Origin: Candidatus Hermodarchaeum yapensis | Lineage (GTDB): Archaea > Asgardarchaeota > Hermodarchaeia > Hermodarchaeales > Hermodarchaeaceae | Direction: 5' to 3' | NCBI GenBank assembly: GCA_016840405.1 | Contig: JAEOSK010000002.1 | Coordinates: 68,042 to 132,041 of the forward strand | DNA length: 64,000 bases | Part shown: piece by piece, positions 4,628-61,817 of the stretch | Numbering within the stretch: position 1 is the first letter of the stretch | Layout of the letters: each line of letters begins with the position of its first letter | Position numbers and translations under genes: made by a program | Notes under the pieces: model-generated | Database searches by the model: none | Told to the model about the DNA's origin: nothing | What the model saw: only the letters and a program-made list of their open reading frames with translations

Positions 4628-5707
4628 ATGATAAAGACCCAAATATGTGATATGCTTGAAATTGACTATCCAATTGTTCAAGCCGCAATGGGGCCCTTTG
4701 ATACGAAAGATCTTGCTATAGCTGTGGCTTCTGCGGGAGGATTTGGGATGGTGAGTCATCCTGCTCCTCGGCTTGAAGACGGGCTTTTTGAAGCTATTCA
4801 AAATGAAGATGCTAAACAGAAGGCGATTGAGAATGTAAAAGAGCATATGATGGCAGCAATCTGTGAAGTAGGAGAAAAAGCTCAAGGATCTTTTGGAGTT
4901 AATTTTCGTGTGGCTCCGGAGCAGCCTGATGTTCCTTTTTTGTTGGATGCACTTCTTGAGGAGCGGGATAGAAATTCCAATCTGCAAAAGAAGCTCAAGA
5001 TGGTGCTCTGCTCTGCTGGTGATCCGACTCAGCTACATTTGAAAAAAATTCAGGAAGCGGGGATGCTTCGGTTTCATACCGTTCCAAGCGTTTACCATGC
5101 AAAGAAGGCAGAGAAATCGGGTGTCGATGGTTTGATTGTCACGGGGTATGAGGCAGGAGGTCACGTTGCATATGAGCCAATTCATACCTTTGTGGCGGTA
5201 CCAGAGGTGGTTAAAGAAGTCAACGTGCCCGTGATTGGAGGTGGGGGTGTGTGTGATGGGAAGGGACTTGTTGCCATGCTAGCCTTTGGCGCGTTAGGCA
5301 TCTATGTGGGAACGCGGTTTATCGTTACCAAAGAATGTGAATTCAACGATAAAGTAAAAGAGGAAATTATTGCGGCTTCCATTAAATTTCCGAAAAAAGC
5401 GGCAACGATTGTCACTCAAGGTGTATATGGCCCCCTTCGGCACCTGAAGAACAAATATTCACTTGAATTGTTTGAGCTTACTCAGAAGATGCAACGAGGT
5501 GAAATCTCAATGATGGATGTGTTGCTCTTCGAGACGGAAGGCACATACCGGGCCAAGGGTCCTGAAGGAAATATCGAAGATGGTGCTATCTGGGCTGGAC
5601 AGGCATCTCTCCGAATTCATGAAATGCTCACCTGTAAGGAGTTGATTTCTGAAATCATGAATGAAGCCAAGCAAATCATGAACAACTTCGCCAAAACATA
5701 CGTGTAG
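4628..5707 (+). CDS. nitronate monooxygenase / enoyl-reductase-like FMN TIM-barrel protein (NMO family)
   Basis: N-terminus LEIDYPIVQAAMGP, GYEAGGH and GGGGV glycine motifs typical of the NMO/FabK family. GGTGGTG precedes the ATG. Confidence 0.75.
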   Translation: MIKTQICDMLEIDYPIVQAAMGPFDTKDLAIAVASAGGFGMVSHPAPRLEDGLFEAIQNEDAKQKAIENVKEHMMAAICEVGEKAQGSFGVNFRVAPEQPDVPFLLDALLEERDRNSNLQKKLKMVLCSAGDPTQLHLKKIQEAGMLRFHTVPSVYHAKKAEKSGVDGLIVTGYEAGGHVAYEPIHTFVAVPEVVKEVNVPVIGGGGVCDGKGLVAMLAFGALGIYVGTRFIVTKECEFNDKVKEEIIAASIKFPKKAATIVTQGVYGPLRHLKNKYSLELFELTQKMQRGEISMMDVLLFETEGTYRAKGPEGNIEDGAIWAGQASLRIHEMLTCKELISEIMNEAKQIMNNFAKTYV

Positions 5708-5721
5708 GATGTGAGAGTACA

Positions 5722-6198
5722 ATGACAAGAAAACGCATTGAAATTACAACTGGTTTTGTGCAAGCGGATTATAATTTCTGGGTTGGCAAATATATGGACA
5801 AATTCTATGATGGGCTCGAATCCAAGCAGGTACTGGGAAATAGATGTCCGACGTGTAACAGAGTGTTCGTGCCTCCCAGGAAGGTCTGTGGAAACTGTTT
5901 CAAAACCATAGATTTGAGTAATAACTGGGTCAAACTGAAAGATACTGGAACGTTACGCAATTTCACAACAACAAGGATTGCAGTATCTGAAGCAGGCAAG
6001 AAAAAAACTTCTGAAGCGATTCCAATTGGAATGGTCCAATTCGATGGAAGTGATACATCAGTTGTCTATCCTCTTCTTGATGTTCAAGAAAAAGACCTGA
6101 CGATTGGTTTGAAGGTTCAGGTTGTCTGGAATGATGAGTTGAAAGGGCATCCCAGGGACATTAAGGGTTTTAGAATGCTCAAGGGGGGAGAAAGGTGA
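5722..6198 (+). CDS. DUF35 OB-fold/zinc-ribbon acyl-CoA-associated protein
   Basis: Rubredoxin-like CPTCNRVFVPPRKVCGNC followed by an OB-fold-length C-terminus. Its stop overlaps the next gene's GTG start (6195-6198). Confidence 0.75.
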   Translation: MTRKRIEITTGFVQADYNFWVGKYMDKFYDGLESKQVLGNRCPTCNRVFVPPRKVCGNCFKTIDLSNNWVKLKDTGTLRNFTTTRIAVSEAGKKKTSEAIPIGMVQFDGSDTSVVYPLLDVQEKDLTIGLKVQVVWNDELKGHPRDIKGFRMLKGGER

Positions 6199-7343
6199 AC
6201 AAGGTAGGTATTGTGGGTTACTATCAGGTTCCGCCTGCGCTGGATCATAACATGGGTCGTTATGAACTGATTTTCCAAGCCGTTAGGGGTGCGCTCGATA
6301 ATGTGGGTTTGAAACACAAAGATGTTACCTCCGTGGTGAGTGCTACTAATGACTACTATGACGGACGAACCATCTCGAATTGCTTCACAGTGGAAGCCGG
6401 TGGAGGGTACATGAAAGATGAAACCAAGGTCGAAATGGACGGAGCTTTTGCAGTTCATTATGGAATGCTCCGAGCGTTAACAGGACATCACAAGTTAGTC
6501 CTCGTTTGGGGTGGAAGCATGTCCTCCTGCTATCCCTATAGTTCGTCCACACTGCTTTCGACAGATCCCACCTTTGAACGTCCTCTCGAATTGATTAACG
6601 ATATGACTGCTGGGGCGTTTCAGATGCGAGCTTACATGAACCACTTCAACGTGTCTGCTGAAGACATTGCTCAAGTTGCAGTAAAGAATCGGAGGAATGC
6701 CACTTCAAATGAGCTAGCTTTACCTGAATCCCAGTTACCAGCAGCAACGACCGAAATGATTCTGAAAGCCGATGTACTCAGTTCACCAGTCACAGAACTA
6801 ATGTATTCTCATCCCTGTGACGGTGCGGCGTGCATCATCTTAGCTCCAGAACAGCAGGCCTTGAAGATTCGTGATGATCCCGTGTGGATTACCGGAGTGG
6901 GCTATTCGCAAGAAGCCTATTATCTAGGTGATCGAGACCTCACACAAAGCCAATCAATGAAAAATGCTGCGCAAATGGCGTATAAAATGGCGGGAGTGAA
7001 AGACCCGAAAAAGGAGACTGATGTCGCCGAAGTATTTGAGCACTTTGCCCACGAAGAGATGATTTTCTCTGAAGCATTGGGATTCTGTAAACCTGGAGAA
7101 GGGGCATCATTGTCAACTGAAATTGGCGGAGAATTACCCATTAATCCCTCAGGTGGTGCGATGAGCGGAAATACTCCTTGTGCCACGGGTATGATTCGGC
7201 TGATTGAAGCAGCGAAGCAAATTCATGGTGACGCTTCGGAGCATCAGGTGAAAGATGTCCACCGTGTTGTGGCCTCGGGTCAAATTGGCTTATGTGCCCA
7301 GAATAATATTCTCTTTGTGTTGGAAAGAGGTGGACGGAAATGA
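6195..7343 (+). CDS. thiolase-fold (SCP-x type) protein lacking the nucleophilic Cys
   Basis: Thiolase-like layout (NPSGGAMSG...ATG C-terminal motif). The aligned nucleophile position reads VEMDGAFAV (Gly at 6441-6443). GTG start after GGGGGAG. Confidence 0.75.
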   Translation: MNKVGIVGYYQVPPALDHNMGRYELIFQAVRGALDNVGLKHKDVTSVVSATNDYYDGRTISNCFTVEAGGGYMKDETKVEMDGAFAVHYGMLRALTGHHKLVLVWGGSMSSCYPYSSSTLLSTDPTFERPLELINDMTAGAFQMRAYMNHFNVSAEDIAQVAVKNRRNATSNELALPESQLPAATTEMILKADVLSSPVTELMYSHPCDGAACIILAPEQQALKIRDDPVWITGVGYSQEAYYLGDRDLTQSQSMKNAAQMAYKMAGVKDPKKETDVAEVFEHFAHEEMIFSEALGFCKPGEGASLSTEIGGELPINPSGGAMSGNTPCATGMIRLIEAAKQIHGDASEHQVKDVHRVVASGQIGLCAQNNILFVLERGGRK

Positions 7344-8581
7344 GTAAGCAACAAGCGGCGATAGTGAGTGCGGGTTTCTGTGAACATGCTTCCAAACGTT
7401 CCGATGTGAATATGGCTGAAATGGCCAACGAAGCGATCCAGGATTGTCTGAATAATGCGAATATTGAGATGGATGCGGTTGATGCCATCGTGATGGGAAA
7501 TATGCCTGCCTTTGAGGGAGCGAATCTACCAGAGTTATGGATGACAGATTGGGTGGGTGCCCGTGACAAGCCACTTATCCGAGTAACCACTGGGGGCACC
7601 ACGGGAGGGTCGGTTGCGATTGCTGGATACTATCATGTTGCTGCAGGACTTCCGGGGATAGAAACCGTGTTGGCTGTTGCCTTTGAGCAACAATCCTGTG
7701 GGAATACCAGTGTTGGTTTGTCATCTGTAGCATTAGGTGAAATTTCCATTGTGAACGCTTTGGGTTTACCCGCTGAGAGTGCCATGCGTATCTTTGGTGC
7801 TGGGGCAGCAATTGGTATTGCCTCCTATCAAGCCATCAACTATATGAAACGAAGTGGTTGCACCGAAGAAGACCTTGCCCGCGTTGTGGTGCAAAATCGC
7901 CGAAACGCTGCCAAGAACTGGTGGACCCACCTTAAGATGCCAGACTATACTATCGAACAGGTCATGGCTACACCCTACGTATCTTATCCCCTCAGATTTG
8001 GCATGGTGACTCCAGCATCTGATGGTGCTTGTGCAGTGCTCTTTACCAGAGAAGAAATCGCCAAAGACACGGTTGATATTCCTGCCTATGTCAATGGAGT
8101 ATCCAGTGTAGCGAATGAAACCGGCATCGTAGGTTATGCCGCTGCAGGAGCAGGACAGCTAGATCCCTGCGAACAACTGGGTGCCGTGGAATCAGCGAAA
8201 CTCGCATATTCGCAAGCGGGAATCTCATTTCCAGAAAAGGAAATTGATTACGCAGAAGTCTATTCACCGTTTCCCAATCAAGAACTAATGTGGCTAGAAA
8301 GATTGGGACTATTCAAGGAAAACACTGCCCACCTGCGATATCGCGATGGAACAACTGCTCCAAACGGCGAGTTACCCGTAAACTGTTCTGGGGGCGTCAA
8401 TTCAACCAACGCAATCGGCGCTTCCGGATTAGAGCGAGTTGCTGAAGCCGCATTACAAATCATGGGGAAAGCAGAAAATCAGGTTCCCAAAACGGTTCAT
8501 ACATCGATTGGCCATGGTTGGGGTGGCTGCATTAACTTCGTAACACTGACAGTACTCAGTGATCAACCACGACGAAAATGA
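7340..8581 (+). CDS. thiolase-fold (SCP-x type) protein lacking the nucleophilic Cys, paralogous partner subunit
   Basis: VNCSGGVNS...GASG C-terminal motif. Nucleophile position reads RVTTGGTTGG (Gly at 7595-7597). ATGA-type 4-nt overlap with the upstream gene. Confidence 0.75.
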   Translation: MSKQQAAIVSAGFCEHASKRSDVNMAEMANEAIQDCLNNANIEMDAVDAIVMGNMPAFEGANLPELWMTDWVGARDKPLIRVTTGGTTGGSVAIAGYYHVAAGLPGIETVLAVAFEQQSCGNTSVGLSSVALGEISIVNALGLPAESAMRIFGAGAAIGIASYQAINYMKRSGCTEEDLARVVVQNRRNAAKNWWTHLKMPDYTIEQVMATPYVSYPLRFGMVTPASDGACAVLFTREEIAKDTVDIPAYVNGVSSVANETGIVGYAAAGAGQLDPCEQLGAVESAKLAYSQAGISFPEKEIDYAEVYSPFPNQELMWLERLGLFKENTAHLRYRDGTTAPNGELPVNCSGGVNSTNAIGASGLERVAEAALQIMGKAENQVPKTVHTSIGHGWGGCINFVTLTVLSDQPRRK

Positions 8582-8594
8582 AGGACGGAATAAA

Positions 8595-9107
8595 ATGGTG
8601 AAACTGGAATATCTCAAAAAAGAGTATGAAAAAACACGACAAATGCCCGGGAAATGGCCTCTCTCATCGTACCGCTACAAATTCAACATCACCCATTTCC
8701 AACCCTTTCTTAAGGCATTGAAGGAGAAACGGTTAATCGGATTGAAATGTCGAAGCTGCAACACTGTAAGTTTTCCACCCAAACTCGTGTGTGGGAAGTG
8801 TCTTGTCCAACCCGATCAATGGGTGGCACTACGTGACACAGGCATGGTTGCCACCTTCACAGCGAACTACATGAAAGATGAAACCACAGGAGAACTGCAG
8901 TCATTCCCAGTTATTGCAATCCAGCAAGATGGGGCCGACACAACATTCCTAACCCAACTGAATCCGGCTGTCAAATTCGAGGATGTGTATGTAGGTATGC
9001 CGGTGAAGGTCAAATGGAAAAACCAACCAGAAGGCAATCTCGGTGACATCGAATACTATGATGTTATAGACGATGCTACCAAGAAAATGAAATTACAAAA
9101 CGAGTAA
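8595..9107 (+). CDS. DUF35 OB-fold/zinc-ribbon acyl-CoA-associated protein (second copy)
   Basis: CRSCNTVSFPPKLVCGKC zinc ribbon plus OB-fold region. ATG at 8595 follows GAAGGA; the ORF opens at 8559, overlapping the upstream gene. Confidence 0.75.
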   Translation: MVKLEYLKKEYEKTRQMPGKWPLSSYRYKFNITHFQPFLKALKEKRLIGLKCRSCNTVSFPPKLVCGKCLVQPDQWVALRDTGMVATFTANYMKDETTGELQSFPVIAIQQDGADTTFLTQLNPAVKFEDVYVGMPVKVKWKNQPEGNLGDIEYYDVIDDATKKMKLQNE

Positions 9108-9156: not shown

Positions 9157-10716
9157 ATGACAATAGGAGAATTAGTTGAAAAACAGGCTCAACAATATTC
9201 CGATAAAATCTTCCTCTACTGGCAAGATGAAACAGTGACTTATACTCAATTGAATGCGCTTACCAATAAGGTTGCAAATATGCTCCACAGCCTAGGTATT
9301 CGTAAGGGAGATGTCGTCAGCGTTTTACTTCCCAACATGCCAGAATACGTCTATCTCTACTTGGGCATCCCCAAACTTGGTGCAATCGTGGGACCAGTCA
9401 ATGCCCTTTTCAAAGCACGAGAAATTCAATTTGTAGTGGGGCATTCTGAAGCCAAGGTCCTAGTTACGATTCCACGTTTTATGGACATTGTAAGCACTAT
9501 TCAGAAAGACCTACCTTGTTTAGAACATGTCATTGTCATAGATGAATCGAGTCAAGAAGCTCTAAGTTACCACGACCTAATGGAAAAAGCCGCAGCAACC
9601 ACTCCACCAACAGTATCCATAGATGAAAAAGAGGATCCCGCTGCTATTCTGTACACCTCGGGAACCACTGGGTTTCCCAAGGGTGTATTGCAGACCCATT
9701 TCAATATCAAACGGAATGCCCAGATGATCATTGATCATCTGGGAGTAGACGCCAATGAAGATCATCGATTCATGCTTATTTTACCTCTCTTTCATGTGAA
9801 TGCTCAAATTGTCACCGTCATGTCTCCTCTCACCCTTGGCGCAAGCACCATACTCACACCAGGTTTTTCCGCAAAAACCCATTGGGAAACTGTCGCGAAA
9901 TATCGCGCAACCACCTTTAGTGCTGTTCCAACCATACTTTCAATCCTTTTGCGAATGCCCCATGAAGGTTTAGACCTGTCCTCCATTAAATGGATTATCT
10001 GTGGTGCTGCCCCACTTCCCATTGAGATCATGAAAGCTTTCGAATCAACCTTCCATTGCAGCGTTGTCGAAGGATATGGGCTCACAGAAGGAACCTGCGC
10101 CTCCTCCTGTAACCCGCTCCCCACAGAAACCGAAGATAGACGCAAAGTTGGCAGCATTGGCGTTGCTTTACCTGATACCAAAATGAAAATCGTTGATGAT
10201 TCAGGGAATGATGTTCCAGCAAAGGGAACAGGTGAAATCATCTGCAAAGGCGATAACGTTATGAAAGGCTACTTCAAGAACCCTGAAGCGAATGCTGAGA
10301 CTCTCAAAGATGGATGGTTATACACTGGAGACCTGGGCTATGTGGATAACGATGGGTTCTTCTACATTGTGGGTCGGAAGAAGGATTTGATTATTCGCGG
10401 GGGCGAGAACATCTATCCAAGGGAAGTCGAAGAGGTGCTCTACGCATACCCGGGGGTCACAGAAGCTGCTGTTATCGGTGTCTTTGATGAAATCTATGGC
10501 GAAGTTCCTAAAGCTTTCATCGTGATGAAAGAAGCCTACGAAGCATCAGAGGACCAGATCCTTCAACATTGTCTAGAGAATCTCGCTGACTTCAAAGTTC
10601 CTCAATATGTGGAGTTTCGCTCAGAATTACCCAAGAATCCTACCGGAAAGATTATGAAAACCCCACTCCGCGAAGAAGAAGCTGAGAAATTACAAGAAAC
10701 AAACCCGTCGGACTGA
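9157..10716 (+). CDS. AMP-dependent acyl-CoA synthetase (fatty-acid--CoA ligase family)
   Basis: AMP-binding signature LYTSGTTGFPKGV, plus GYGLTE, YTGDLG and GRKKDLIIRGGENIYP. ATG 9157 preceded by GGAGGA. Confidence 0.85.
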   Translation: MTIGELVEKQAQQYSDKIFLYWQDETVTYTQLNALTNKVANMLHSLGIRKGDVVSVLLPNMPEYVYLYLGIPKLGAIVGPVNALFKAREIQFVVGHSEAKVLVTIPRFMDIVSTIQKDLPCLEHVIVIDESSQEALSYHDLMEKAAATTPPTVSIDEKEDPAAILYTSGTTGFPKGVLQTHFNIKRNAQMIIDHLGVDANEDHRFMLILPLFHVNAQIVTVMSPLTLGASTILTPGFSAKTHWETVAKYRATTFSAVPTILSILLRMPHEGLDLSSIKWIICGAAPLPIEIMKAFESTFHCSVVEGYGLTEGTCASSCNPLPTETEDRRKVGSIGVALPDTKMKIVDDSGNDVPAKGTGEIICKGDNVMKGYFKNPEANAETLKDGWLYTGDLGYVDNDGFFYIVGRKKDLIIRGGENIYPREVEEVLYAYPGVTEAAVIGVFDEIYGEVPKAFIVMKEAYEASEDQILQHCLENLADFKVPQYVEFRSELPKNPTGKIMKTPLREEEAEKLQETNPSD

Positions 10717-44470: not shown

Positions 44471-47400
44471 TCAACCCCTAAGATGCGGGTCCAAGAGTGT
44501 TTGGATTGGTTTTTCATTGAAATGTTCAACCAGCCGTTCGTAATTCCAGCCAAGCGGCGTGAGGAGAGTATCTGCTGCGCGGAGTAGCAGTTGTGCGTAT
44601 TTGTCTTTGTCGTAGTGGGTTGCAGCTGATGTGTGAGGAAGTGCGACGCGGCGTAGGGGATGGCGTGACAGGGCATCAGTATGTACGTAGCGAACGGGTT
44701 GTCCAGGCTGGATGTCTTGGCCATACCGCATCGCTAGTTCAGCTGCGATGGCTTGGCTACACTGCTGTTGATATTCGCCTGGTGACCGACTGATATTTTG
44801 GGTGATGACGAGATCATCGATAGCCACGTCACCATTATGCAGACGTTCTAGATAGTCTTTGACGATGTCGAAGAGCTGGGGCAGCATCTCTTGCATCTCT
44901 TCAGCTTCTTCGGCACCCGCAAGACAGGTCAGTAGGTCCATTTGAAGCTGCTTGATATATGGTGGGGTGTCACGGCGTCGGAGTTCGATGCCACGTACTT
45001 TGATGGTGCCATCTTCTTTGACGCCGCAGTAACGGGTTAGAGCACCATAGGGCTGATTGCGGCAGGGGAGGAACATAATCCAGCGGTAGCGCCCTTCAAA
45101 CTCCATCGACAGTCCCGTTTTCTCTTGGATGGCTTCACCTACCGCTAGATAGTCGTCGACGGTGGCTCCCGGTTTTTGGAGCCAGACACAATCCACAATA
45201 CCATGGAGCACTTGGAATCCTCGCTGTTCGCTTACGGCTTTGGTCTGTAAGAGGACGCGACGACTAAATGCCGTGACACACTCATAAGCTTCGACACGAC
45301 CAAAACGTGAGGCCCGAAAACCCAAATAGCCAAAACAGTTGTGTGTAAAGATGCCTCCTTTCCCAGCTGCGAATCCTGATAAGGGGCTATCTACTTCGAA
45401 GCAGTACACATACTTGGATGTGGGTGTTACTTTAGCGATTTCCGTAACCTTGGAAAAACCAATATCGCTTTCTATCAACTGTTTGATGAAGGCTAGTTGC
45501 TCTTGGTCTATTTTGGAGAGCGTCGGTTTATCAAGAAGTTTGGCTATCTGTGTTGTTGCAGCTGCTCGTTGAGTTCTCTCAGCTAGATCAATTCGTGGGT
45601 TTCTGACTGTTCGATACTTCTGAGCAAGCTGGCGTAAACGAGTTTCGTGAACGGGAATTCCTCTGATTAGTGAATGTGGACGTTGGCTAGCGTTCTTGCT
45701 GCGGAGGATCCGCTCGTGTTTTCTTTTCAGGGAACTGTGGGATAGGATTTCGGTCAGGCTTCGCATTCCATTGATGCGGAATGCATGTGTCACGCCTTTC
45801 TTTTTGGAACGGTTTAGCAGGAAATCGATGTCCAAGGTTAATGCCATGTAGCCCAACTGGTTGAGTAACTTTTCGCTTTTAGTGCCTATTCGAATTACGT
45901 TTCGGGTCTTTTCGATAGATCCATCGCTTGCGATGAGGCCTGCAAGAAACTCGTAACGCACTGCTCTTGGCGCATTAAGGATATAGAACGGTATTTGAAG
46001 TCGACCTTGACTCGCTGTATGTCCAATCAAGAATGCCTTTTCCAATAATTCAACGAGAGCGGTGCTATTGATTTGTATGACGTACATGTTTGCATTTGTT
46101 TCTTTACGGATCTGTCCTTTCAGACCAAAGCTCGTCGAAATGATTCGGTTGATTCTCTTGAGGAGGGCAACATCTTCTGCATTCACATCTAGTCGGATCA
46201 TGTTCCGAGTTGCACTTCCATCTCCGACAAAGAAGCCTAACAGGAAAGCTAGATTCTCATCAAGCGACACTGTGGCAGGAATCCATTTCACTAGTCCACC
46301 CTTGCGTCTTCCCCGCCCAATTTGCAACTGTCGATGTTTTTCAGCAGAGAGGTGAAGCAACTTGAAATATCGGAGGGGGATGTACCCTTCTCGCTGCCAG
46401 TTGTTGAGGGCTTGGACAGTATGACTGCCCTGAGACAAAGCAGACATGATTGTATTGCGATTCTCTATGATGGCTTTTCTTAAGATAGGACCATGGACTC
46501 TCCACGTATCAAGGGTGTTCCTAGAATGCTGGTTGAGGAGAATTTCTATGAAGTCAAATTGCTTTTGTTTCGAGCTTGAAGGAACAGATAGCATGACAGG
46601 TAGAAAGTCACCGCGTTTGAGTTGTCGAGTTTCTTTAGTCATCAATCGGCCATTGTCAAGAACATAGGATGGGTGATCGGGGGTAAGGGTAATCTCTCGA
46701 CCTCCCTCCAAAATGACCTTAAGAAGAGTGTCTGGTGCGTTAAGCTTGAAGAACTGCTTCACTGGGGCGAAGGTTGCTTTGTACTGCTCATCCAGCCCGA
46801 TAACCTGGACATCAAGATGGCAAGGTTGTACGCTAGGCGACGTAAGATGTTGGTCGATAAATTGTCCTATCTTAACAAGTTGTAGGTCACCATTGATTCT
46901 TACTGGTACTATCTCGTCAGAATCCAAACACACAACGAGCAACCATTTGAGGGCAGATTGTCGGGCTTCATAGATTGGATTGTCGTGGCGGCGCTTCTTG
47001 TAGTAAGTGCGTTTCTCAAGTATTGGTTTGAGGAAGGTAGGGACGATTCCGATTTCTCGTTGGCACAGCCAGTAGCCTAGTTCGGGGACGATGGTGGCGT
47101 CATCGGGGCAGCAGTCACAGAAGAGTGCCTCGGGGGAGATGTTGTGTTTGACCATCAGTGATGGATACATGGACAGAAAATCGAGTTCCCCCACATCACT
47201 GAACACTCCGACACGCGGAGTAATGACATGACCACCTCGGTCTGCGTTGAGCAGTTCGATGCCCGTCTTGTACTGTTCGGGGTCGGCTTTGGTTTCCGGG
47301 ATTAGCACACCACGTCTGAGGGCTTCCTGCATCTGTAGCATGTTAATCCCTGTGCCGGGGCTGCTGCGTGCCATGCGTTGTGGCGGAAAGGCAGTGAGTC

Positions 47401-48265
47401 GACATCCCTCAATCAAGCCGTGGAAGTCGCCAAAGGTCATATATGATCGGTCCAAGTGTAACCGTCCTCGCAGAATGAAGGGGTGCGGTCGATAGAAGAC
47501 TGGACCGCCATATCGGAACACGGCACGGCCAGCAGGCAAGGTCTTATCACTAAAGACGTGGGGTGTGTGGTCACGGTTCAAGGAGAACTGTTGTAACATT
47601 CCTGCCTCGCCGACGCGTTGGATGAGTGCTGGTAAAATGTGGGCGTCACCTCTCTCGGTGAAAATGATGTCGGGATTCTGGGCGGTGATCCAGTCTTGGA
47701 GCATCATGGGTTCGGTGGTCTGTAGGGTGTCCCCTTTGGAGCTGGCTGCGGTGAAAAGGTCCTCCCCTTCCAGGCGGAGGTCCACGGTGTCGAAGGGAGG
47801 GAGATCATAGTCGAGAGCCAATTGGGAGTCGCAGGAGTCGATTCGGGTCACGCGGGTCCTCGACTGATTGGTGTGGACCTCTACCTGTTCGAAGGGGTAG
47901 CGCTGCTGCTCGAGATACCACAGCTGCGTTGCAGAGAGATCGCCGTTGAAGACGCGAAAACGGGGAACGGCGAGGGCTTTGAGTTCGCGGACGACACGGG
48001 GGAGTTGGGTGCAGGAGGAAACTGTAACGGCGAGAACCGGACGTCGCGGGCCCCGCAGCTGCAGCCGATGAAACTCGGGTGTCACGGCGCTCACGTGGGG
48101 GTGACTCTCAAATAGCGGCGCATAGTCCTCGAATTGGACGCCCGGCGCATGTAAGTAGAACCGTGGCTGATAGGACACCTCCAGCGGTACACACGCCTCA
48201 GCCGTTCGTAACCACAGGATCAAATGGTCCGGCTGGGCGGTTATGTCGAGGATCCAGCCACGCAT
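44471..48265 (-). CDS. polB: family-B DNA polymerase homolog with non-canonical Exo and Pol-C motifs, interrupted by an intein
   Basis: N-terminus MRGWILDI, motif A ELDFLSMYPS, motif B KWLLVV|CFGYLG split by the intein, motif C position HGIVDC, KxY-region IKVRGIELRRRD. Confidence 0.85.
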   Translation of the reverse strand: MRGWILDITAQPDHLILWLRTAEACVPLEVSYQPRFYLHAPGVQFEDYAPLFESHPHVSAVTPEFHRLQLRGPRRPVLAVTVSSCTQLPRVVRELKALAVPRFRVFNGDLSATQLWYLEQQRYPFEQVEVHTNQSRTRVTRIDSCDSQLALDYDLPPFDTVDLRLEGEDLFTAASSKGDTLQTTEPMMLQDWITAQNPDIIFTERGDAHILPALIQRVGEAGMLQQFSLNRDHTPHVFSDKTLPAGRAVFRYGGPVFYRPHPFILRGRLHLDRSYMTFGDFHGLIEGCRLTAFPPQRMARSSPGTGINMLQMQEALRRGVLIPETKADPEQYKTGIELLNADRGGHVITPRVGVFSDVGELDFLSMYPSLMVKHNISPEALFCDCCPDDATIVPELGYWLCQREIGIVPTFLKPILEKRTYYKKRRHDNPIYEARQSALKWLLVVCLDSDEIVPVRINGDLQLVKIGQFIDQHLTSPSVQPCHLDVQVIGLDEQYKATFAPVKQFFKLNAPDTLLKVILEGGREITLTPDHPSYVLDNGRLMTKETRQLKRGDFLPVMLSVPSSSKQKQFDFIEILLNQHSRNTLDTWRVHGPILRKAIIENRNTIMSALSQGSHTVQALNNWQREGYIPLRYFKLLHLSAEKHRQLQIGRGRRKGGLVKWIPATVSLDENLAFLLGFFVGDGSATRNMIRLDVNAEDVALLKRINRIISTSFGLKGQIRKETNANMYVIQINSTALVELLEKAFLIGHTASQGRLQIPFYILNAPRAVRYEFLAGLIASDGSIEKTRNVIRIGTKSEKLLNQLGYMALTLDIDFLLNRSKKKGVTHAFRINGMRSLTEILSHSSLKRKHERILRSKNASQRPHSLIRGIPVHETRLRQLAQKYRTVRNPRIDLAERTQRAAATTQIAKLLDKPTLSKIDQEQLAFIKQLIESDIGFSKVTEIAKVTPTSKYVYCFEVDSPLSGFAAGKGGIFTHNCFGYLGFRASRFGRVEAYECVTAFSRRVLLQTKAVSEQRGFQVLHGIVDCVWLQKPGATVDDYLAVGEAIQEKTGLSMEFEGRYRWIMFLPCRNQPYGALTRYCGVKEDGTIKVRGIELRRRDTPPYIKQLQMDLLTCLAGAEEAEEMQEMLPQLFDIVKDYLERLHNGDVAIDDLVITQNISRSPGEYQQQCSQAIAAELAMRYGQDIQPGQPVRYVHTDALSRHPLRRVALPHTSAATHYDKDKYAQLLLRAADTLLTPLGWNYERLVEHFNEKPIQTLLDPHLRG
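45338..46930 (-). mobile_element. 531-aa intein with LAGLIDADG homing-endonuclease domain, inserted in polB motif B
   Basis: N-terminal Cys (VV|CLDSDE), C-terminal THN|C junction, dodecapeptide motifs LAFLLGFFVGDGSA and EFLAGLIASDGSI. Junction codons checked by hand (TGT at 46928-46930; AAC 45338-45340; +1 TGT 45335-45337). Confidence 0.85.
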
Positions 48266-48427: not shown

Positions 48428-51400
48428 CTATACCGAGGAACCGCAGACAGGACAATATCGGGCTCGTGAAGGGATTAGTGCACCACAATAGGCACAAAAC
48501 CGCATAGTTTCTGGTCGCTCTGATGAAGGAGTGTCTGGAGGATGTCTGTATTGACGTGGTGGGGATTTCGGTATTGAGGGACCTCTTCTTAGCAGAAAGA
48601 CCATAACTGCAACCGAAACCACAATAATCGTATCAATTCCAATAGCCATGACGAGTAGCCATAATTCAGCTTGAGGTAATGTGGTCACACCCTGTTGAAC
48701 GGTAAGGTGAAAGACACCAACGCCGTCAGTATCACCCGGAAAGGAGTACACTTCAATATAGTATGTATCTCCACGGGTCAGATGAACAGTGAATGACTCA
48801 GTCGAGTCACTCCCAAGCGAACTTGCTAAGACATCATTGTATTCATCGTAAAGATACAAATCAAAGTCTGTGAAATAATCCAGCAAGAGCGCTTCCAAAC
48901 CAAAAGTGTATAATCCAGTCACTGCGGGTACGAATTCATAATAAACCGAATCATCAGCCCACTCCAAATACCCAAAATATTCAGCATACGCACTTAACTC
49001 AACAGCCGTTCCCCTAGTGGATCCCACATCAGTAAATTCATCCATGAATTCATCCCAAAGCGTATCATCCGCGAGATCCAAATCATCAATGAACTTGTTA
49101 AGAACCACAGCTAGCCCCGTAGCCTCTGGGACACCAGAAAGATGTTCTTCATGAACTATTGCAGCTGCAACAACGTCACCAAGATCCCTGGCTAAGGGTA
49201 TTAACTGGGGATACGCTGAGTCACTAAAGACATTGGCTAAAGCTGAGGCGAACCCGCCCAAATCAACAAAATCCGCACGAGTGAAACCTTGAGCAAACAC
49301 GCGAGCAACACAAACTCTATCATACACCATTGGTGAATCAAGTAAATAGCTGAGTTCTGAACCGAGTATATGCAAGCAAGTGACAATGTCCTGAAGCTGA
49401 GACGTATCAACAGAGGACAAACAAGCCCAGTTTAATAAAGGATCATGATATCGACCGCCAACTCGATAAGCAGCACCATAAAAATACGGCATACCTTCAG
49501 CCACAGTCAAAGGTTTTGAATCGGGGAATGAAGTGAGGTTTGCCAGAATATCCTCATATGGAAATCCACTAACTGGCACACCCTCTTCGGAAAAGACGAG
49601 ATAATCCGTAACATCACGCAGCTCATAGGCTACCTCGAGTTGTCCCATCATACAGGCATCGAAGGCAACAACGTCCAAATACTGAACCTGGGGATCGCTA
49701 AGTGCAATTTGGACCTCATGCATACTCAGATAATCAGCACTGGTTTCGTCAACGCATACCGATTCATATCCCGAACCATGATCCCATAGTACAAGGAGAT
49801 AATTTTCTGCTGGAGCATATGATTGTCCAAACACGATGAAATCCCGAAGGGTTTGCCAATCGCCCATATTCGGCTCCAAAGGTAGTGGATGTGAGAGCTC
49901 AATGGAATTAATTGTATTCAGATTAGTATCATAAGTGACTTCGTAACAACGCGCTCCGCTATATGGTGCGATTAATGTCGACCAAAAATCTACGAACACA
50001 AGAATATGGACGTCTGGTGATGGCAACACGGTTTCCATAGAGTTCAAATCACTGAATGCATACTCCTCCAAGTCGTTATCACCATCAAGATACACCAGCA
50101 CAGTCCATGCATCTGAATGTGTAACGGTGACAGAAAATGACGCATTTATTACCTCATTATTCGTATCATTGGCCCAAACCTCTATCCCATATTTACCTGG
50201 TGTCAGTGGTGTAACATTGCGGATTTCTCCCCACAAATCAATGGAGAAATGAGTAGTATCATTAATCCAATACTGATCAATTAATACCACTGTTAATGCT
50301 TCAACGTAGTAAACAAACTGCTCATCAGCAACAACAAACTGGTCATTAGGCACTTCTCTCCAGACAATATTCAACGGCTCATAATTCACAAGCCAGAAGG
50401 CGTGATGACCATCAATTGATCTATTCACATGACCAGCAATAATAAGATTCCCAAAACTATCTTCGACAATAGACCCGCCATATGACAAATCCGGAGATGT
50501 ACCAAAAGCGCCATACCAGGTCATATTTCCCCATTCATCTGTTCGGACAACCCACAAATTCGAATAATACGTTGAGTCATAGCTATAAGAAAATCCACAA
50601 AGGGCATAACCACCAGCATCACATGCAATCATATCACGAAACACATCAAGCCTAGTCCCACCATAGAAATAGTCCCACATTAAATCCCCATTATTGTTAA
50701 GAAAAAGAATCCGACCATCAGTACTTCCAGAAACCGGGTTATACCCTTCTCCAGCAAGAACAATGATTCCATTACTCGCCCGCCAGACTGAATGGCATAA
50801 ATCATAACTCGGTCCAACATACGTGCGTTCCCAAAGGGAGTGGCCCGTTGAGTTGGTTCTGATACAATAGAAATCATAGTCACCTGGTGGACCTGAATAA
50901 CCTCCAATGACAAAACCATTGTCGGGATGTTGAACTAGATCAGTTCCATAATCAAATTGCGTTCCACCATAAGTGGCGTTCCAGAGGTGATTTCCATCAT
51001 TATCGAGTCGTATCAACCAAACATCCGTTTCACCAGCGCCAAAACTTGTTGTATATCCGATTATTGCATATCCGCCATCATTACATTCAATCATGGATTG
51101 GGCATAGTCACTACCTGTTCCCCCAAAGGTCGTATTCCACAGAAGGTTGCCTATTGCATCAATTCGCAGAATCCAGACATCGAAATCGCCCGCACCATAA
51201 CTCCGGGTATAACCTGCAATGATGAATCCTCCACTAGAATTTTCGAGTATTGCTGAGCTACTCTCAAATTCCACTCCTCCATAAGTCCGATTCCATTGAT
51301 GGATTCCGAAACTATCAGTACGATCAACTCTAATGTCAAAACCAGACACACCAACAAGTGCGTAACCACCATCACTACACAAAACATGATCCTCTGCTGC

Positions 51401-51664
51401 TTGGACATGGTTCTCATATCCGTACATATGATTCCAGGTAGGTTCATGCTGATAAGGAACTGGAGGTAATACTGATGGCAAAGGAGAGTCGGATACACGA
51501 TATTCTTCAAGTTCTGTGCTTTGCACACCTTCGGAGAAAATGTCAGCACCAAGCACTTCTGAATTCTTCACATCAATAATGTGTGGTCTTTGATCGGAAA
51601 CAAGTGGCAAACAAAGGAGAGCAAGAGTGAACACAAGGATAATTGCAATACGAATTCGTCTCAA
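48428..51664 (-). CDS. surface multidomain protein: signal peptide, 7 propeller-type repeats, clostripain-like (C11) cysteine peptidase, PPC domain, TM helix, cytoplasmic zinc ribbon
   Basis: VLVYLDGDNDLE, catalytic His in LWDHGSGY (49778-49780) and Cys in AFDACMMG (49652-49654). PPC-like DFDLYLYD...GDTYYIEVY. TM LWLLVMAIGIDTIIVVSVAVMVFLL. Zinc ribbon FCAYCG...YCPVCG. Confidence 0.75.
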   Translation of the reverse strand: MRRIRIAIILVFTLALLCLPLVSDQRPHIIDVKNSEVLGADIFSEGVQSTELEEYRVSDSPLPSVLPPVPYQHEPTWNHMYGYENHVQAAEDHVLCSDGGYALVGVSGFDIRVDRTDSFGIHQWNRTYGGVEFESSSAILENSSGGFIIAGYTRSYGAGDFDVWILRIDAIGNLLWNTTFGGTGSDYAQSMIECNDGGYAIIGYTTSFGAGETDVWLIRLDNDGNHLWNATYGGTQFDYGTDLVQHPDNGFVIGGYSGPPGDYDFYCIRTNSTGHSLWERTYVGPSYDLCHSVWRASNGIIVLAGEGYNPVSGSTDGRILFLNNNGDLMWDYFYGGTRLDVFRDMIACDAGGYALCGFSYSYDSTYYSNLWVVRTDEWGNMTWYGAFGTSPDLSYGGSIVEDSFGNLIIAGHVNRSIDGHHAFWLVNYEPLNIVWREVPNDQFVVADEQFVYYVEALTVVLIDQYWINDTTHFSIDLWGEIRNVTPLTPGKYGIEVWANDTNNEVINASFSVTVTHSDAWTVLVYLDGDNDLEEYAFSDLNSMETVLPSPDVHILVFVDFWSTLIAPYSGARCYEVTYDTNLNTINSIELSHPLPLEPNMGDWQTLRDFIVFGQSYAPAENYLLVLWDHGSGYESVCVDETSADYLSMHEVQIALSDPQVQYLDVVAFDACMMGQLEVAYELRDVTDYLVFSEEGVPVSGFPYEDILANLTSFPDSKPLTVAEGMPYFYGAAYRVGGRYHDPLLNWACLSSVDTSQLQDIVTCLHILGSELSYLLDSPMVYDRVCVARVFAQGFTRADFVDLGGFASALANVFSDSAYPQLIPLARDLGDVVAAAIVHEEHLSGVPEATGLAVVLNKFIDDLDLADDTLWDEFMDEFTDVGSTRGTAVELSAYAEYFGYLEWADDSVYYEFVPAVTGLYTFGLEALLLDYFTDFDLYLYDEYNDVLASSLGSDSTESFTVHLTRGDTYYIEVYSFPGDTDGVGVFHLTVQQGVTTLPQAELWLLVMAIGIDTIIVVSVAVMVFLLRRGPSIPKSPPRQYRHPPDTPSSERPETMRFCAYCGALIPSRARYCPVCGSSV
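50375..51382 (-). repeat. seven tandem about 45-50-aa beta-propeller-type repeats (coding)
   Basis: Recurrent GG(Y/F)xIxGYTxSxGAGxxDxWLIRxDxxGNxLWNxTYGG units read in the protein. Confidence 0.6.
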
Positions 51665-53560: not shown

Positions 53561-55813
53561 ATGCGTCGAATTACCTTGCCACTGACTATCTTTGTACTAG
53601 CTCTCACGCTACTCCAACCAACCATCCCCTTTACGCTTGCATCAGCAACACCTAGAGTTCGGGCTTCATTGCAACCTTCCTTAGCTCCAATGAATACCGT
53701 TCCTGTGGACACCACCGCCTTTTTCACACTCAACGAAACACACGAACAACAAGTCTTCAACATCCCCATTGATCAACCAGGACAATATGGTTTTGATATG
53801 TCCTTTACTATGGACAACGGATCTGCCGGACCCTGGCGGAATCTTGATTTGGAATTACGTGAAAGTGCTTCTCAGTATGTTCCTCATCTGAATAATTATC
53901 TTCATACGAGTTACAGTCTTGATACTGGTTTCTGGAGTTGGAATACAGCGAATTACACATCCAACATGATTAGCGAATTTGTTGCAGTGCATCCTGGGTT
54001 CCTTGTTGTCGCCCTTGACTTCCAATCCGCTACAGCCGATGACCGAATTAATGGTAACTTTTCAGTGAACCAACTCTTCGATTTCAGTTCAGCTGTAATG
54101 CATCCATGGGATCAGAGCCAGACCATTTCTTGGACAGCCGATGATTCCTGGAATTCTTCTATGTTCACAATTGCTGAACATGGCTACTATAACATCACCC
54201 TCTATAGCGAATTACCCTACGATACAACCGCAGGTTGGGTTGGTGAGCCCTTCTTCCAACCCTTCGCCAAACTACGACTGTTTGATATCACCCATGGTGA
54301 AGAACCCGGTCTATTCTACAGCTTTACTCCCCAGATGGATGTTCCTGCAGGTGCAGGGACAGGAACAGCGAACTGGACCCAGTATCGGTTACTGAAGCTT
54401 GCTCCCGATGACTATTACTTCCTCGGGAATACCTTCGATTTCCTGTTCCTCAATGGTAGTTACGTTGATGTCAATATCGATATCCAAAGAGTGACAATGC
54501 CCACCCTACTCATGAACGAATCCATAACCCTGAGTTTCGACAATAGTTTACCATTGAACGAAGCCCATGTAGCCATTACTGCACCCAAAGGATTCGAATA
54601 CAGTTTGTATTATGATAATCCTATTGGTGCAAATTGGAGTGTTCAAACCCACGATGTGGATACTACCTGGATACCAGCAACCTATTTCCATTATGAAGAC
54701 GCTTCTGGCTCAAATATCGTTGAAGACCGATTCGAAAACTGCTTTTCATGGGCTGGATCTGCCTTTTTTGTCATGGCACCTGATCCATCCTTGACCGGTG
54801 ACTCTTGGGCTGAATATTATTCGTTTGATGGTACAGATGTCGTCTATAACAATGATACCGCCGTTGCTGCAGTCATGGCTGGTTCTGGGCTAGAAGGTTT
54901 CACAGACACCTTCTTCATGGTCATTCAGGCTAATCCATGGAGTGGTACCCCTACTGCAATCTATAATATTACATTGAACTTCATAGGCGAACTCCTTCCG
55001 ACTTTCGCAGAGTCCGGGAATGTGATTCCTGTCAATACAACGATTGGTCCGATGTATCAAATATTTGCCCTTCCTGTTACCAGTGGATGGGAATATGATA
55101 TTACAGGCTGGGCATCAGCGTACACGTCAGCCGGTGGTGTAAGTCTATTCGTTGCTCCAAGTTCCGAATTTTATTTGGACTGGCAATGGTTTGGGTCCTA
55201 TGGGCTCTACGAACCTTTAGTCTTTACAGATCCGATTTCTTTTATGCCACTGATGACCTCAAATGTCAATGATTCAGCCACAATACGATTTGTACCAGTG
55301 CGAAGTGGAATTCAATATGTCATCGTTTTCGGAGCAAACATGATGGGTCCACCAGGGGATAGTTCGGAGGTTACAGTCAATGCTACTGTAACACCTCCGA
55401 CTCCGTACACTATGGGCGCTGTCATGTCACATAGTTTTGAAGAATGGACATATGAGATTTACAGCGTGAGTATCATGGCAGGTGCCAGTTATCGATTAAG
55501 TCTATCATTGGATATTACAGGGGATCAAGCCTATTGGTCCGCTTTCAACGAAATGGGATTCTTTCCCTTCGCGATAACTGCGTCAGATCTTTGGGGCATG
55601 GTGAGTATGAGTACTCTTGACCTAACCCGAACCTATACTGCCTTGGTATCAGGAGTAATCTCTATTGTGGTATACGGTGTAGGTCCTGTCGAGTTCAGCC
55701 TTGTTCCTATTGGCGAAGCACCTGGCTCATTCATACTAGGGTTGGTCATTGGACTTATCTTCATGGCCGTAGGTGTCATCATCGTTTACGTAGTTATGAG
55801 ACGTCGATATTGA
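53561..55813 (+). CDS. large secreted hypothetical protein with C-terminal TM anchor
   Basis: Signal peptide, 750 aa beta-rich with many N-x-S/T sequons, C-terminal FILGLVIGLIFMAVGVIIVYVVMRRRY. Confidence 0.55.
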   Translation: MRRITLPLTIFVLALTLLQPTIPFTLASATPRVRASLQPSLAPMNTVPVDTTAFFTLNETHEQQVFNIPIDQPGQYGFDMSFTMDNGSAGPWRNLDLELRESASQYVPHLNNYLHTSYSLDTGFWSWNTANYTSNMISEFVAVHPGFLVVALDFQSATADDRINGNFSVNQLFDFSSAVMHPWDQSQTISWTADDSWNSSMFTIAEHGYYNITLYSELPYDTTAGWVGEPFFQPFAKLRLFDITHGEEPGLFYSFTPQMDVPAGAGTGTANWTQYRLLKLAPDDYYFLGNTFDFLFLNGSYVDVNIDIQRVTMPTLLMNESITLSFDNSLPLNEAHVAITAPKGFEYSLYYDNPIGANWSVQTHDVDTTWIPATYFHYEDASGSNIVEDRFENCFSWAGSAFFVMAPDPSLTGDSWAEYYSFDGTDVVYNNDTAVAAVMAGSGLEGFTDTFFMVIQANPWSGTPTAIYNITLNFIGELLPTFAESGNVIPVNTTIGPMYQIFALPVTSGWEYDITGWASAYTSAGGVSLFVAPSSEFYLDWQWFGSYGLYEPLVFTDPISFMPLMTSNVNDSATIRFVPVRSGIQYVIVFGANMMGPPGDSSEVTVNATVTPPTPYTMGAVMSHSFEEWTYEIYSVSIMAGASYRLSLSLDITGDQAYWSAFNEMGFFPFAITASDLWGMVSMSTLDLTRTYTALVSGVISIVVYGVGPVEFSLVPIGEAPGSFILGLVIGLIFMAVGVIIVYVVMRRRY

Positions 55814-61433: not shown

Positions 61434-61817
61434 TTATCCGGATTCTTTTGTATGCCGTTCAATGATCGATTTGAAAGTGTCCGAAGATAGGGCACCCTTA
61501 ATGAGATAATCCTTGGCTCCCATTTCAAGAACTTCTTGCACGGTTTCATCATCATCAATTGCAGTTAGCGCGACAATGGTAACATCAGGATAATCCACCG
61601 TTACTTTTCTGATGAGTTCTGTACCGCTAATTTTGGGCAGAACTAAATCCACAAAGAAGATATCTGGCGGATTGGCTTTGATTTTTGATAATGCCTCTTC
61701 GCCGTCTACAGCAGTTTCGATATCATATTCTTTGAGTAAGACTTGGGCGGCACGGAGAAATGTTTCTGAGTCATCTGCTAAGAGGATTCGTATTTTATCC
61801 GATTTCTTGGAAGCCAA
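61434..61817 (-). CDS. stand-alone CheY-like response-regulator receiver domain
   Basis: LLADDS, phospho-acceptor FFVDLVLP, ALTA, AKDYLIK. Start uncertain: TTG 61817 after GGAGGG, or ATG 61883 deep inside the upstream gene. Confidence 0.75.
   Translation of the reverse strand: MASKKSDKIRILLADDSETFLRAAQVLLKEYDIETAVDGEEALSKIKANPPDIFFVDLVLPKISGTELIRKVTVDYPDVTIVALTAIDDDETVQEVLEMGAKDYLIKGALSSDTFKSIIERHTKESG

Follow-up and report, generated by a model that had tools for sequence, protein, structure and literature searches.

A cysteine-less thiolase-fold pair with two DUF35 proteins in Candidatus Hermodarchaeum yapensis, a probable Asgard version of the bacterial Ltp3-Ltp4 module

Gene organization of the locus

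Contig JAEOSK010000002.1 of the Asgard archaeon Candidatus Hermodarchaeum yapensis carries a block of four genes that encode two different thiolase-fold subunits (T1 and T2) and two small DUF35 proteins (DUF35-A and DUF35-B). The stretch analyzed, hereafter called the window, comprises 64,000 nucleotides (nt). Both thiolase-fold proteins have lost the residues by which thiolases work, and on sequence comparison the block is best read as the Asgard version of a bacterial module, Rv3521/Ltp4/Ltp3. A first-pass annotation of the same DNA had proposed an aldolase-like complex at this site.

The block is part of an operon-like unit of six genes (Table 1), which is bounded by a 154-nt gap upstream and by a convergent gene downstream, the gene after the acyl-coenzyme A (acyl-CoA) ligase lying on the opposite strand. 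The first gene is separated from DUF35-A by 14 nt. DUF35-A and T1 share the 4-nt overlap GTGA at 6195-6198 and T1 and T2 share ATGA at 7340-7343, each with a Shine-Dalgarno-like GGAG/GAGG upstream, and GGAGG lies upstream of the acyl-CoA ligase ATG at 9157. The open reading frame (ORF) of DUF35-B could open at GTG 8559, but gene callers use ATG 8595 on six public contigs. Its start is thus most likely ATG 8595, and of the earlier description of four overlapping or abutting genes both 4-nt overlaps hold, while the fourth gene most likely begins 13 nt past the T2 stop without overlapping it. The core genes are real, strongly conserved, and not chance ORFs, judging from homologs that reach E-values down to 1e-262. 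No paralogs of the block were found elsewhere in the window.

Table 1. Genes of the operon-like unit in the window, and one recurrent neighbor of the block at related Asgard loci.
Feature	Coordinates	Strand	Family evidence
Flavin mononucleotide (FMN) enzyme, NMO family, nearest FabK enoyl reductases; opens the operon	4628..5707	+	Pfam NMO, 168 bits
DUF35-A, stand-alone zinc ribbon and OB fold, 158 aa	5722..6198	+	Pfam zf-ChsH2, OB_ChsH2_C
T1, Ltp4-like thiolase-fold subunit, 382 aa, GTG start	6195..7343	+	Pfam Thiolase_C_1, Thiolase_N
T2, Ltp3-like thiolase-fold subunit, 413 aa, ATG start, presumed catalytic	7340..8581	+	Pfam Thiolase_C_1, Thiolase_N
DUF35-B, second, distinct zinc-ribbon and OB-fold protein, 170 aa	8595..9107	+	Pfam zf-ChsH2, OB_ChsH2_C
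Acyl-CoA ligase of the AMP-binding family, 519 aa; closes the operon	9157..10716	+	Pfam AMP-binding, 337 bits
Beta-keto acid cleavage enzyme (BKACE) beside the block at other Asgard loci	L007 4356-5231; L008 10729-11616; L021 2702-3616; L022 3295-5192 (two in tandem)		

Both small proteins consist of the two Pfam domains formerly named DUF35, although DUF35-B matches DUF35-A with only 66 bits. Their four-Cys zinc ribbons, CPTC...CGNC in DUF35-A (nt 5845-5898) and CRSC...CGKC in DUF35-B (nt 8748-8801), had been recognized in the first-pass annotation; they passed a codon check, and the CxxC...CxxC pattern is intact in every Asgard ortholog locus examined, the contig of the window among them. 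T1 and T2 match Thiolase_C_1 with 100-104 bits, in addition to Thiolase_N. The earlier assignments of the flanking genes to an NMO-family enzyme and an acyl-CoA ligase agree with Pfam. More specifically, the NMO protein scores 198 bits against the NCBIfam FabK model TIGR03151, below its cutoff of 453, and its best matches in the PDB are the FabK structures 7l00 and 5gvh (E 5e-43). The ligase scores 528 bits against NCBIfam PRK06187, above the cutoff of 476, and its PDB matches are led by FadD13, followed by oxalyl-CoA and 4-coumarate-CoA ligases.

Loss of the thiolase catalytic residues

Residues were assigned by phmmer and profile alignments to the solved thiolases 7yvy (P. furiosus), 6esq (the M. 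thermolithotrophicus thiolase of the HMG-CoA synthase (HMGCS) complex), and BbsB 7pxp, and family-wide counts were taken over 86 T1-like and 86 T2-like sequences from Archaea and Bacteria. In T2, Gly86 (codon 7595-7597) occupies the position of the nucleophilic Cys. In T1, a three-residue deletion takes out the nucleophilic Cys and the loop reads KVEMD82-G83 (Asp82 codon 6438-6440, Gly83 codon 6441-6443). The two Gly codons had been placed at the nucleophile motif before and were verified by a codon check, and the replacement of the GHPxGATG histidine, also claimed earlier, proved to be by Asn in both proteins (T1 N326, 7170-7172; T2 N357, 8408-8410). The HDCF motif, a point absent from the first-pass annotation, is likewise lost and reads F281-E-H-F in T1 (7035-7046) and Y308-S-P-F in T2 (8261-8272). 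Alignment of the T1 and T2 family profiles by hhalign pairs F281 with Y308 and N326 with N357; the C-terminal motifs align cleanly in this comparison, and the nucleophile loop unreliably.

T1 and T2 therefore have the thiolase fold according to Pfam, but have none of the Cys, HDCF, and GHP His residues that go with it. A hidden Cys nucleophile elsewhere in either protein appears very unlikely because no Cys column is invariant among the 86 T1-like or the 86 T2-like sequences, and the most conserved Cys column of the T2 family (position 224, 82/86) holds Thr in the T2 of the window. With all three catalytic positions replaced, here and across both families, these alignments indicate that T1 and T2 cannot be classical thiolases, as had been proposed earlier, and without a nucleophilic Cys the complex would be unable to form an acyl-enzyme. 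The AlphaFold2 model of T1 has a mean local confidence score (pLDDT) of 70 and an SCP2-thiolase fold (template-modeling score 0.7-0.8), but it fits all SCP2-type thiolase-fold structures about alike and does not tell aldolases from thiolases. The model of T2, built on an alignment of 21 sequences that are all at least 71% identical, reached a pLDDT of 35 and was unusable.

The best PDB sequence match of both proteins is ST0096 of Sulfolobus tokodaii (4yzo), an archaeal "thiolase-like protein" (T1 profile E 2e-36, T2 profile E 2e-39). Like T1 and T2, ST0096 is without the nucleophilic Cys, but unlike them it has a Ser in place of that Cys and retains the histidines of HD and GHP. No literature on the function of ST0096 (4yzo) or of PFC_04095 (7yvy) was found. 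This match, together with the presence of Thr84 in 86/86 T2-like proteins, might suggest a real thiolase or acyltransferase with a non-Cys nucleophile, for instance Thr84 of T2 or a Ser as in ST0096. However, T2 is without both His and the acid/base Cys that thiolases need, Thr84 sits two residues off the nucleophile position, and Cys-to-Ser variants of thiolases are nearly inactive. A nucleophile of this kind is highly improbable.

Conservation across Asgard lineages

All of the best 120 clusters (90% identity) for T2 are 71-95% identical to it, and the best 120 for T1 are 63-94% identical; their names span Hermod-, Loki-, Thor-, Hod-, Odin- and Sigynarchaeota. The nearest named relatives of the block are Hermodarchaeia, and an identical T2 is encoded in GCA_016840585.1 (contig JAEOSB010000008.1) and by several contigs from sediment metagenomes. 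Among 1.84 billion representatives of 50%-identity clusters, the sole full-length T2 match above 50% identity is P0097 (73%), and the next, at 45%, comes from metagenome-assembled genomes (MAGs) of Actinomycetota. The Asgard orthologs of T2 appear to collapse into a single 50%-identity cluster. Identity to other Asgard lineages falls from 71-76% for T2 through 62-67% for T1 and 52-63% for DUF35-B to 46-58% for DUF35-A, a gradient in keeping with T2 being the catalytic core. How far this conservation extends and how strong it is was not part of the first-pass annotation, and it raises the biological interest of the block.

Conservation is concentrated in the loops of T2 that are equivalent to the thiolase active site, as RVTTGGTTGG, EVYSPFPNQEL, and CSGGVNSTNAIGAS are nearly invariant, which argues for a working pocket and not a decayed one. 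In the T2-like set, K77, T84, G86, E116, Y168, E306, Y308, N357, R366, Q373, and Q381 are invariant (86/86) and H197 is nearly so (85/86), and T2 of the window carries every residue conserved at 93% or more except at position 224. In the T1-like set, D82 is present in 86/86 and an ES[KH]VEMD motif is common to T1 and mycobacterial Ltp4. T1 also has the family-conserved D53, D209, R247, Q369, and N371, and its position 281 varies among T1-like proteins (F/H/Y).

This pattern bears on the idea of a dead pseudoenzyme assembly that binds or carries acyl-CoAs or lipids, or that scaffolds other enzymes. The absence of every thiolase residue from both subunits would suit such a role, the NCBI name of the Ltp4 family is "lipid-transfer protein", and DUF35 proteins do scaffold other complexes. 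However, T2 is most conserved in those motifs that correspond to the active site, and polar residues that are invariant across Archaea and Bacteria are typical of a working active site, which makes a pseudoenzyme quite improbable.

Conserved pairing and DUF35 arrangement

A T2-family alignment (single peptide pattern) was scanned against one genome per species of GTDB, and 80 loci were listed. These and earlier loci were searched with the six window proteins, yielding 85 non-redundant loci (14 other Asgard ortholog loci, 5 paralog loci, and 66 bacterial or Jordarchaeia (Jord) loci); the prevalence figures apply to the loci retrieved and not to all genomes. At 85/85 of these loci the T2-like gene is directly preceded by a T1-like one. 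The pair is accompanied by two DUF35 domains in 81/85, comprising 14/14 Asgard ortholog, 5/5 paralog, and 62/66 bacterial/Jord loci.

The position of the DUF35 domains differs between lineages. DUF35-A precedes T1 and DUF35-B follows T2 in all 14 other Asgard ortholog loci, and this flanking layout is also present in three bacterial/Jord loci, from Jordarchaeia, Chloroflexia, and Blastocatellia. Both DUF35 genes lie downstream of the pair in Dehalococcoidia and in an Asgard paralog group (roughly 39% identical), and in Actinobacteria, Myxococcota, and others the domains are fused upstream in one double-DUF35 protein of 310-400 aa. Taken by themselves, the 4-nt overlaps are weak evidence for a complex. 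The proposal of a heteromeric complex made in the first-pass annotation is nevertheless supported, because T1 and T2 are obligatorily paired, two DUF35 domains go with the pair in 81/85 loci, and these domains are fused in other lineages, and DUF35-A, T1, T2, and DUF35-B would form one assembly whose physical association and stoichiometry we infer from these arrangements.

Asgard archaea also have additional T1-like/T2-like pairs with two DUF35 genes behind each of them (L007 838-4284, L030-L033, L053, and L032 2-3253). These paralog pairs are approximately 39% identical to T2 or more distant, and the Hermodarchaeota MAG DZ1M.51 has both an ortholog (L019) and a paralog (L032). The co-occurrence of ortholog and paralog pairs indicates that Cys-less pairs have multiplied in Asgard archaea, and such pairs may inflate counts of "ketothiolase/DUF35 pairs".

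Relationship to the Ltp3-Ltp4-Rv3521 module

The best NCBIfam match of T2 is PRK08313, with 372 bits (cutoff 514). T1 matches PRK06065, PRK08313, PRK06066, and PRK07937, the best being PRK06065 with 211 bits; its score against PRK07937 is 178 bits (cutoff 419). Actinobacterial pairs pass PRK07937 with the first gene and PRK08313 with the second (550-767 bits), as in Mycobacterium lehmannii, where the two score 652 and 767 bits. Upstream of the M. lehmannii pair lie genes for a double-DUF35 protein, an F420_Rv3520c-family oxidoreductase, a P450, an EchA19 equivalog, and an AMP-ligase. The order in M. tuberculosis is fadD19, echA19, cyp142, Rv3520c, Rv3521, ltp4 (Rv3522), and ltp3 (Rv3523) (PMC6429209). 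The match between these loci identifies PRK07937 as the Ltp4 family, PRK08313 as the Ltp3 family, and Rv3521 as the double-DUF35 partner. The Ltp3-Ltp4 pair belongs to the cholesterol cluster of Mycobacterium and Rhodococcus, and genetics shows that it is needed to degrade sterol side chains branched at C24. It has been described in reviews as a heteromeric aldol-lyase that takes off the C24 branch of phytosterol side chains as acetyl- or propionyl-CoA (PMC6678751; PMC10832528), and we found no enzyme assay or structure of Ltp3-Ltp4 in the literature.

The block in the window shares with this system two different Cys-less SCP2-type genes in tight spacing, Ltp4-like and then Ltp3-like, with two DUF35 domains beside the pair. 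All invariant residues of the Ltp3 family are found in T2, and the ESxVEMD motif of Ltp4 is found in T1. Ltp3-Ltp4-type loci also have an AMP-ligase close by and sometimes NMO and enoyl-CoA hydratase genes, and on a Tsukamurella plasmid the same trio adjoins an AMP-ligase, a crotonase, and an NMO gene, which is the accessory set of the window. The differences are also considerable, as identity to Ltp3 and Ltp4 is just 40% for T2 and 30% for T1. The DUF35s of the window are separate proteins that flank the pair and have intact four-Cys ribbons, whereas mycobacteria have one fused protein without the four-Cys ribbon. The host context of Ltp3-Ltp4 is sterol catabolism, whereas the window belongs to an archaeon without sterol-catabolic genes nearby. 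A crude neighbor-joining tree places the Asgard orthologs in one tight, long-stemmed clade outside that of Ltp3, and it separates every Cys-less T2-like protein from the Cys-bearing thiolases. We regard the block as a distinct archaeal subfamily of the module because its proteins fall below the Ltp3 and Ltp4 NCBIfam cutoffs and its DUF35 domains are arranged differently. No literature on a DUF35-T1-T2-DUF35 module in Asgard archaea was found. The Ltp3-Ltp4 precedent, absent from the first-pass annotation, lowers the novelty of the block.

With regard to the bacterial loci themselves, the protein in the position of Rv3521 is a tandem double-DUF35 protein at L043 5399-6565 (M. lehmannii), L010 4931-5950, and L011 4990-5919. 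Its four-Cys ribbon is gone in mycobacterial and other Mycobacteriales copies and is kept in Streptomyces copies. Its only annotations are "OB-fold nucleic acid binding domain-containing protein" and conserved hypothetical protein.

Comparison with other DUF35-associated systems

The characterized steroid side-chain aldolases Ltp2-ChsH2 (6ok1) and Sal-Shy (9myr) resemble T2 in that their SCP2-thiolase fold has Gly where the nucleophile would be and Tyr as the first residue of the HDCF equivalent, this Tyr being the catalytic base of Ltp2 and Sal. In both, a DUF35 zinc-ribbon/OB partner caps the thiolase-fold dimer, and the two DUF35 proteins of the window are predicted to bind in a similar manner. 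However, Ltp2 and Sal each form homodimers and use a single type of DUF35 domain, itself part of a fusion with a MaoC hydratase, whereas the window encodes two paralogous subunits and two stand-alone DUF35s, and the T2 motif Y-S-P-F contrasts with Y-D-H-F or Y-D-C-Y in Ltp2/Sal. Similarity to these structures is remote for T2 (E about 1e-10 to 1e-13); T1 matches 6ok1 with E 4e-13 and 9myr with E 2e-23.

Archaeal thiolase/HMG-CoA synthase/DUF35 complexes are likewise encoded by thiolase-fold operons with a stapling DUF35 zinc-ribbon protein. Their thiolases retain the Cys and both His and catalyze Claisen reactions, whereas all three are replaced in the window, and archaeal DUF35 thiolase complexes pair with HMG-CoA synthase or with reductase/dehydratase enzymes and have one DUF35 per pair. 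Membership in an HMG-CoA synthase complex was ruled out, as the operon has no HMGCS gene and T1 and T2 have no such Cys. A BbsAB-type thiolase was also ruled out (BbsB equivalog 81-84 bits against a cutoff of 750). PhlABC/MucABC (5m3k, 9skh, and 9vbo) are similar in that a hetero-oligomer is built from two different thiolase-fold proteins and a DUF35 protein. However, PhlC keeps the catalytic Cys88 (a C88S variant structure is listed), PhlA is KAS-III-like and not SCP2-type, and the chemistry is acyl transfer through an acyl-enzyme, unlike that proposed here. A PhlABC-type acylase was ruled out on the grounds that it needs Cys and a KAS-III-like subunit.

Aldolase signature and proposed mechanism

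In Sal and Ltp2, mutagenesis has identified Sal Tyr302 and Ltp2 Tyr294 as the catalytic base; this is the first residue of Y-D-C/H-F, the counterpart of HDCF in SCP2 thiolases (PMC12329534). Gly replaces the nucleophilic Cys in these enzymes and its backbone contacts the substrate hydroxyl, and the proton donor differs, being Cys304 in Sal and Tyr344 in Ltp2 (PMC12329534). T2 has the same signature, with Gly86 and Tyr308 each in 86/86 relatives, and Tyr308, also absent from the first-pass annotation, aligns with the His of HDCF/HDAF in solved thiolases. T1 has Phe281 in that position and thus no base Tyr. By analogy with these enzymes, we slightly favor reading the block as a heteromeric, Cys-independent beta-hydroxyacyl-CoA aldol-lyase. 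The aldolase-like character suggested earlier is therefore borne out, as far as sequence comparison tells, by homology to Ltp3/Ltp4 and by the Gly/Tyr signature.

Under this reading, T1 and T2 would pair as a heterodimer of thiolase folds in which each subunit carries a zinc-ribbon/OB-fold DUF35 protein of its own as a cap, an assembly modeled on the solved DUF35-Sal-Sal-DUF35 and Ltp2-ChsH2(DUF35) complexes. Tyr308 of T2 would act as the general base on the beta-hydroxyl of a 3-hydroxyacyl-CoA, and the bond between C-alpha and C-beta would be broken by a retro-aldol reaction, releasing a short acyl-CoA plus an aldehyde or ketone. The enolate could be stabilized by backbone amides near Gly86 and Gly395/396, and the proton donor would be new, neither of the Sal type nor of the Ltp2 type. 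T1 would be an obligate structural or substrate-shaping partner because it has Phe instead of Tyr, although Asp82 may still contribute. In this genome, the CoA ester would be made by the flanking ligase, and the FabK-like flavoenzyme may act on the corresponding enoyl/acyl-CoA step, with a hydratase encoded elsewhere. Both the retro-aldol chemistry and the choice of T2 as the presumed catalytic subunit are what we infer from these comparisons.

Several points weigh against an aldol-lyase. T2 is without both known acid residues, as Pro310 stands at the position of Sal Cys304 and Asn357 stands at or beside that of Ltp2 Tyr344 and Sal Gln352 (Asn357 lies approximately 49 residues past the Tyr, and Tyr344 and Gln352 lie 50 past theirs, with a register uncertainty of +/-1). 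The equivalence of Tyr308 with Sal Tyr302 and Ltp2 Tyr294 is transitive, by way of the thiolase HDCF and not by direct alignment. Thus, with respect to the Ltp2 tyrosines raised in the first-pass annotation, a counterpart of the Tyr294-type base is probably present, but Asn replaces Tyr at about position 344. The polar residues D53, D82, D209, R247, and Q369 of T1 are invariant, and T1 may not be a passive partner. Furthermore, neither T1 nor T2 reaches the NCBIfam cutoff of its family (PRK07937 and PRK08313, respectively), and the term "aldol-lyase" for Ltp3/Ltp4 itself derives from genetics and analogy. Finally, the operon has neither a sterol context nor a hydratase gene, and adjacency to the ligase and NMO genes is not kept in most Asgard loci.

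The lack of both known aldolase acid residues could also point to another Cys-independent acyl-CoA reaction, such as decarboxylation of malonyl- or beta-carboxyacyl-CoA (compare chain-length factors and TbSLP) or a reaction of the isomerase/hydratase type. The invariant Asp in the nucleophile loop of T1 and the recurrence of BKACE genes, which handle beta-keto acids, beside the block are in line with this, and TbSLP, which has the same fold and no nucleophile, weakly decarboxylates malonyl-CoA (PMC12329534). However, the rate of TbSLP is negligible and its authors now propose that it is an aldolase, and Sal is without decarboxylase activity (PMC12329534). An invariant Tyr in the base position also suits aldol chemistry, and a decarboxylase or isomerase/hydratase role is improbable.

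Genomic context and possible substrate

The core DUF35-T1-T2-DUF35 arrangement alone is conserved in Asgard archaea, and it is chiefly loci of the Hermod-type lineage (the window and L012, with L017, L020, and L021 in part) that have the ligase and NMO genes at its sides. NMO orthologs adjoin the block in L012 (87% identical), lie 5 kb off in Loki L008 (68%), and occur as a distant copy in L021. A ligase lies within 7 kb in 3/14 other Asgard ortholog loci compared with 43/66 bacterial loci. The earlier suggestion that the adjacent ligase supplies the CoA ester thus stays plausible, but it is weakened by the small number of Asgard loci with a ligase.

Four Asgard lineages have BKACE genes as immediate neighbors of the block (Table 1), and in L007, L020, and L022 the next gene downstream is a threonine-aldolase-like one (PF01212). 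These recurrent neighbors may hint at the pathway. Other neighbors of Asgard orthologs include acyl-CoA dehydrogenases, crotonase, short-chain dehydrogenase/reductase (SDR), zinc-dependent alcohol dehydrogenase (Zn-ADH), and CoA-transferase subunits, with 2-hydroxyacyl-CoA-dehydratase-type genes at the Odin ortholog. No cyp, hsa, ksh, or kstR-type neighbors were found in the window or the Asgard loci. Because of the neighbor genes at the Asgard loci, the context indicates a probable role in general acyl-CoA or amino-acid-fermentation metabolism and not in sterol metabolism. The characterized relatives all cleave 3-hydroxyacyl-CoAs that are barred from thiolysis by a tertiary alcohol or a pathway branch, and a similar cleavage role on branched acyl-CoAs is our guess by analogy.

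It is also conceivable that the same complex runs in the synthetic direction, joining an aldehyde or ketone to acetyl-CoA to give a 3-hydroxyacyl-CoA that is then dehydrated and reduced by the FabK-like enzyme. This would represent aldol-based, non-Claisen chain elongation for lipid or secondary metabolism. The flanking flavoenzyme is nearest FabK, NMO genes are near the block in Loki L008 and L021, and SDR, enoyl-CoA hydratase, and Zn-ADH genes adjoin some orthologs. Archaeal DUF35 complexes have also been reported to pull C-C bond formation forward (bioRxiv 10.1101/2024.07.05.601840). However, the characterized relatives Ltp2, Sal, and Atf1 all work catabolically, by cleavage, the CoA ligase and the acyl-CoA dehydrogenases in the neighborhoods suit degradation better, and no aldehyde-supplying acyl-CoA reductase was seen. 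The synthetic direction is therefore unlikely.

Implications for Asgard metabolism

Database entries label T1 and T2 as "acetyl-CoA C-acetyltransferase" or "thiolase", and Asgard metabolic reconstructions that count them as thiolases of beta-oxidation or fatty-acid synthesis are wrong here. A recent preprint gave an average of 3.8 ketothiolase/DUF35 pairs per Asgard genome and read them as a possible capacity for fatty-acid synthesis; the best-conserved such pair found here is without catalytic residues. It is doubtful, though conceivable, that the block represents a core Asgard-wide enzyme performing aldol, and not Claisen or thiolytic, C-C chemistry on acyl-CoAs. If so, one role would be to cleave tertiary 3-hydroxyacyl-CoAs that lie beyond beta-oxidation, such as those derived from beta-methyl-branched, isoprenoid-derived acids, and a second would be elongation from aldehyde plus acetyl-CoA in the reverse direction with the FabK-like reductase. 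Some of the Asgard "ketothiolase/DUF35 pairs" would then belong to a different, undescribed lipid pathway in those archaea that are most closely related to eukaryotes.

The module also connects Ltp3-Ltp4 of mycobacteria and rhodococci with an enzyme that is strongly conserved in Asgard archaea. By this comparison, the bacterial system is predicted to consist of two thiolase-fold subunits and two DUF35 domains, Rv3521 being its missing third component. The comparison also singles out Tyr308, Asn357, and Glu306 of T2 and Asp82 of T1. There is demand for thiolase-fold aldolases in biocatalysis, for which a stand-alone archaeal version of four proteins would offer a tractable target.

Other features of the window

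No tRNA genes and no Rfam families at the gathering threshold were found in the whole window (1-64000). A 750-aa ORF on the plus strand (53561-55813) had no Pfam match. On the minus strand, 61795-63249 encodes a GvpD/KaiC-like P-loop ATPase (GvpD_P-loop, GvpD_bR2), and no gas-vesicle genes were noted among the scanned ORFs. A 1078-aa protein (48428-51664, minus strand) contains a clostripain (peptidase C11) domain in its middle only. Finally, 44471-48265 on the minus strand encodes a 1264-aa family-B DNA polymerase with an intein that bears a LAGLIDADG homing-endonuclease domain (Pfam DNA_pol_B, Intein_splicing, LAGLIDADG_3, and Hom_end).

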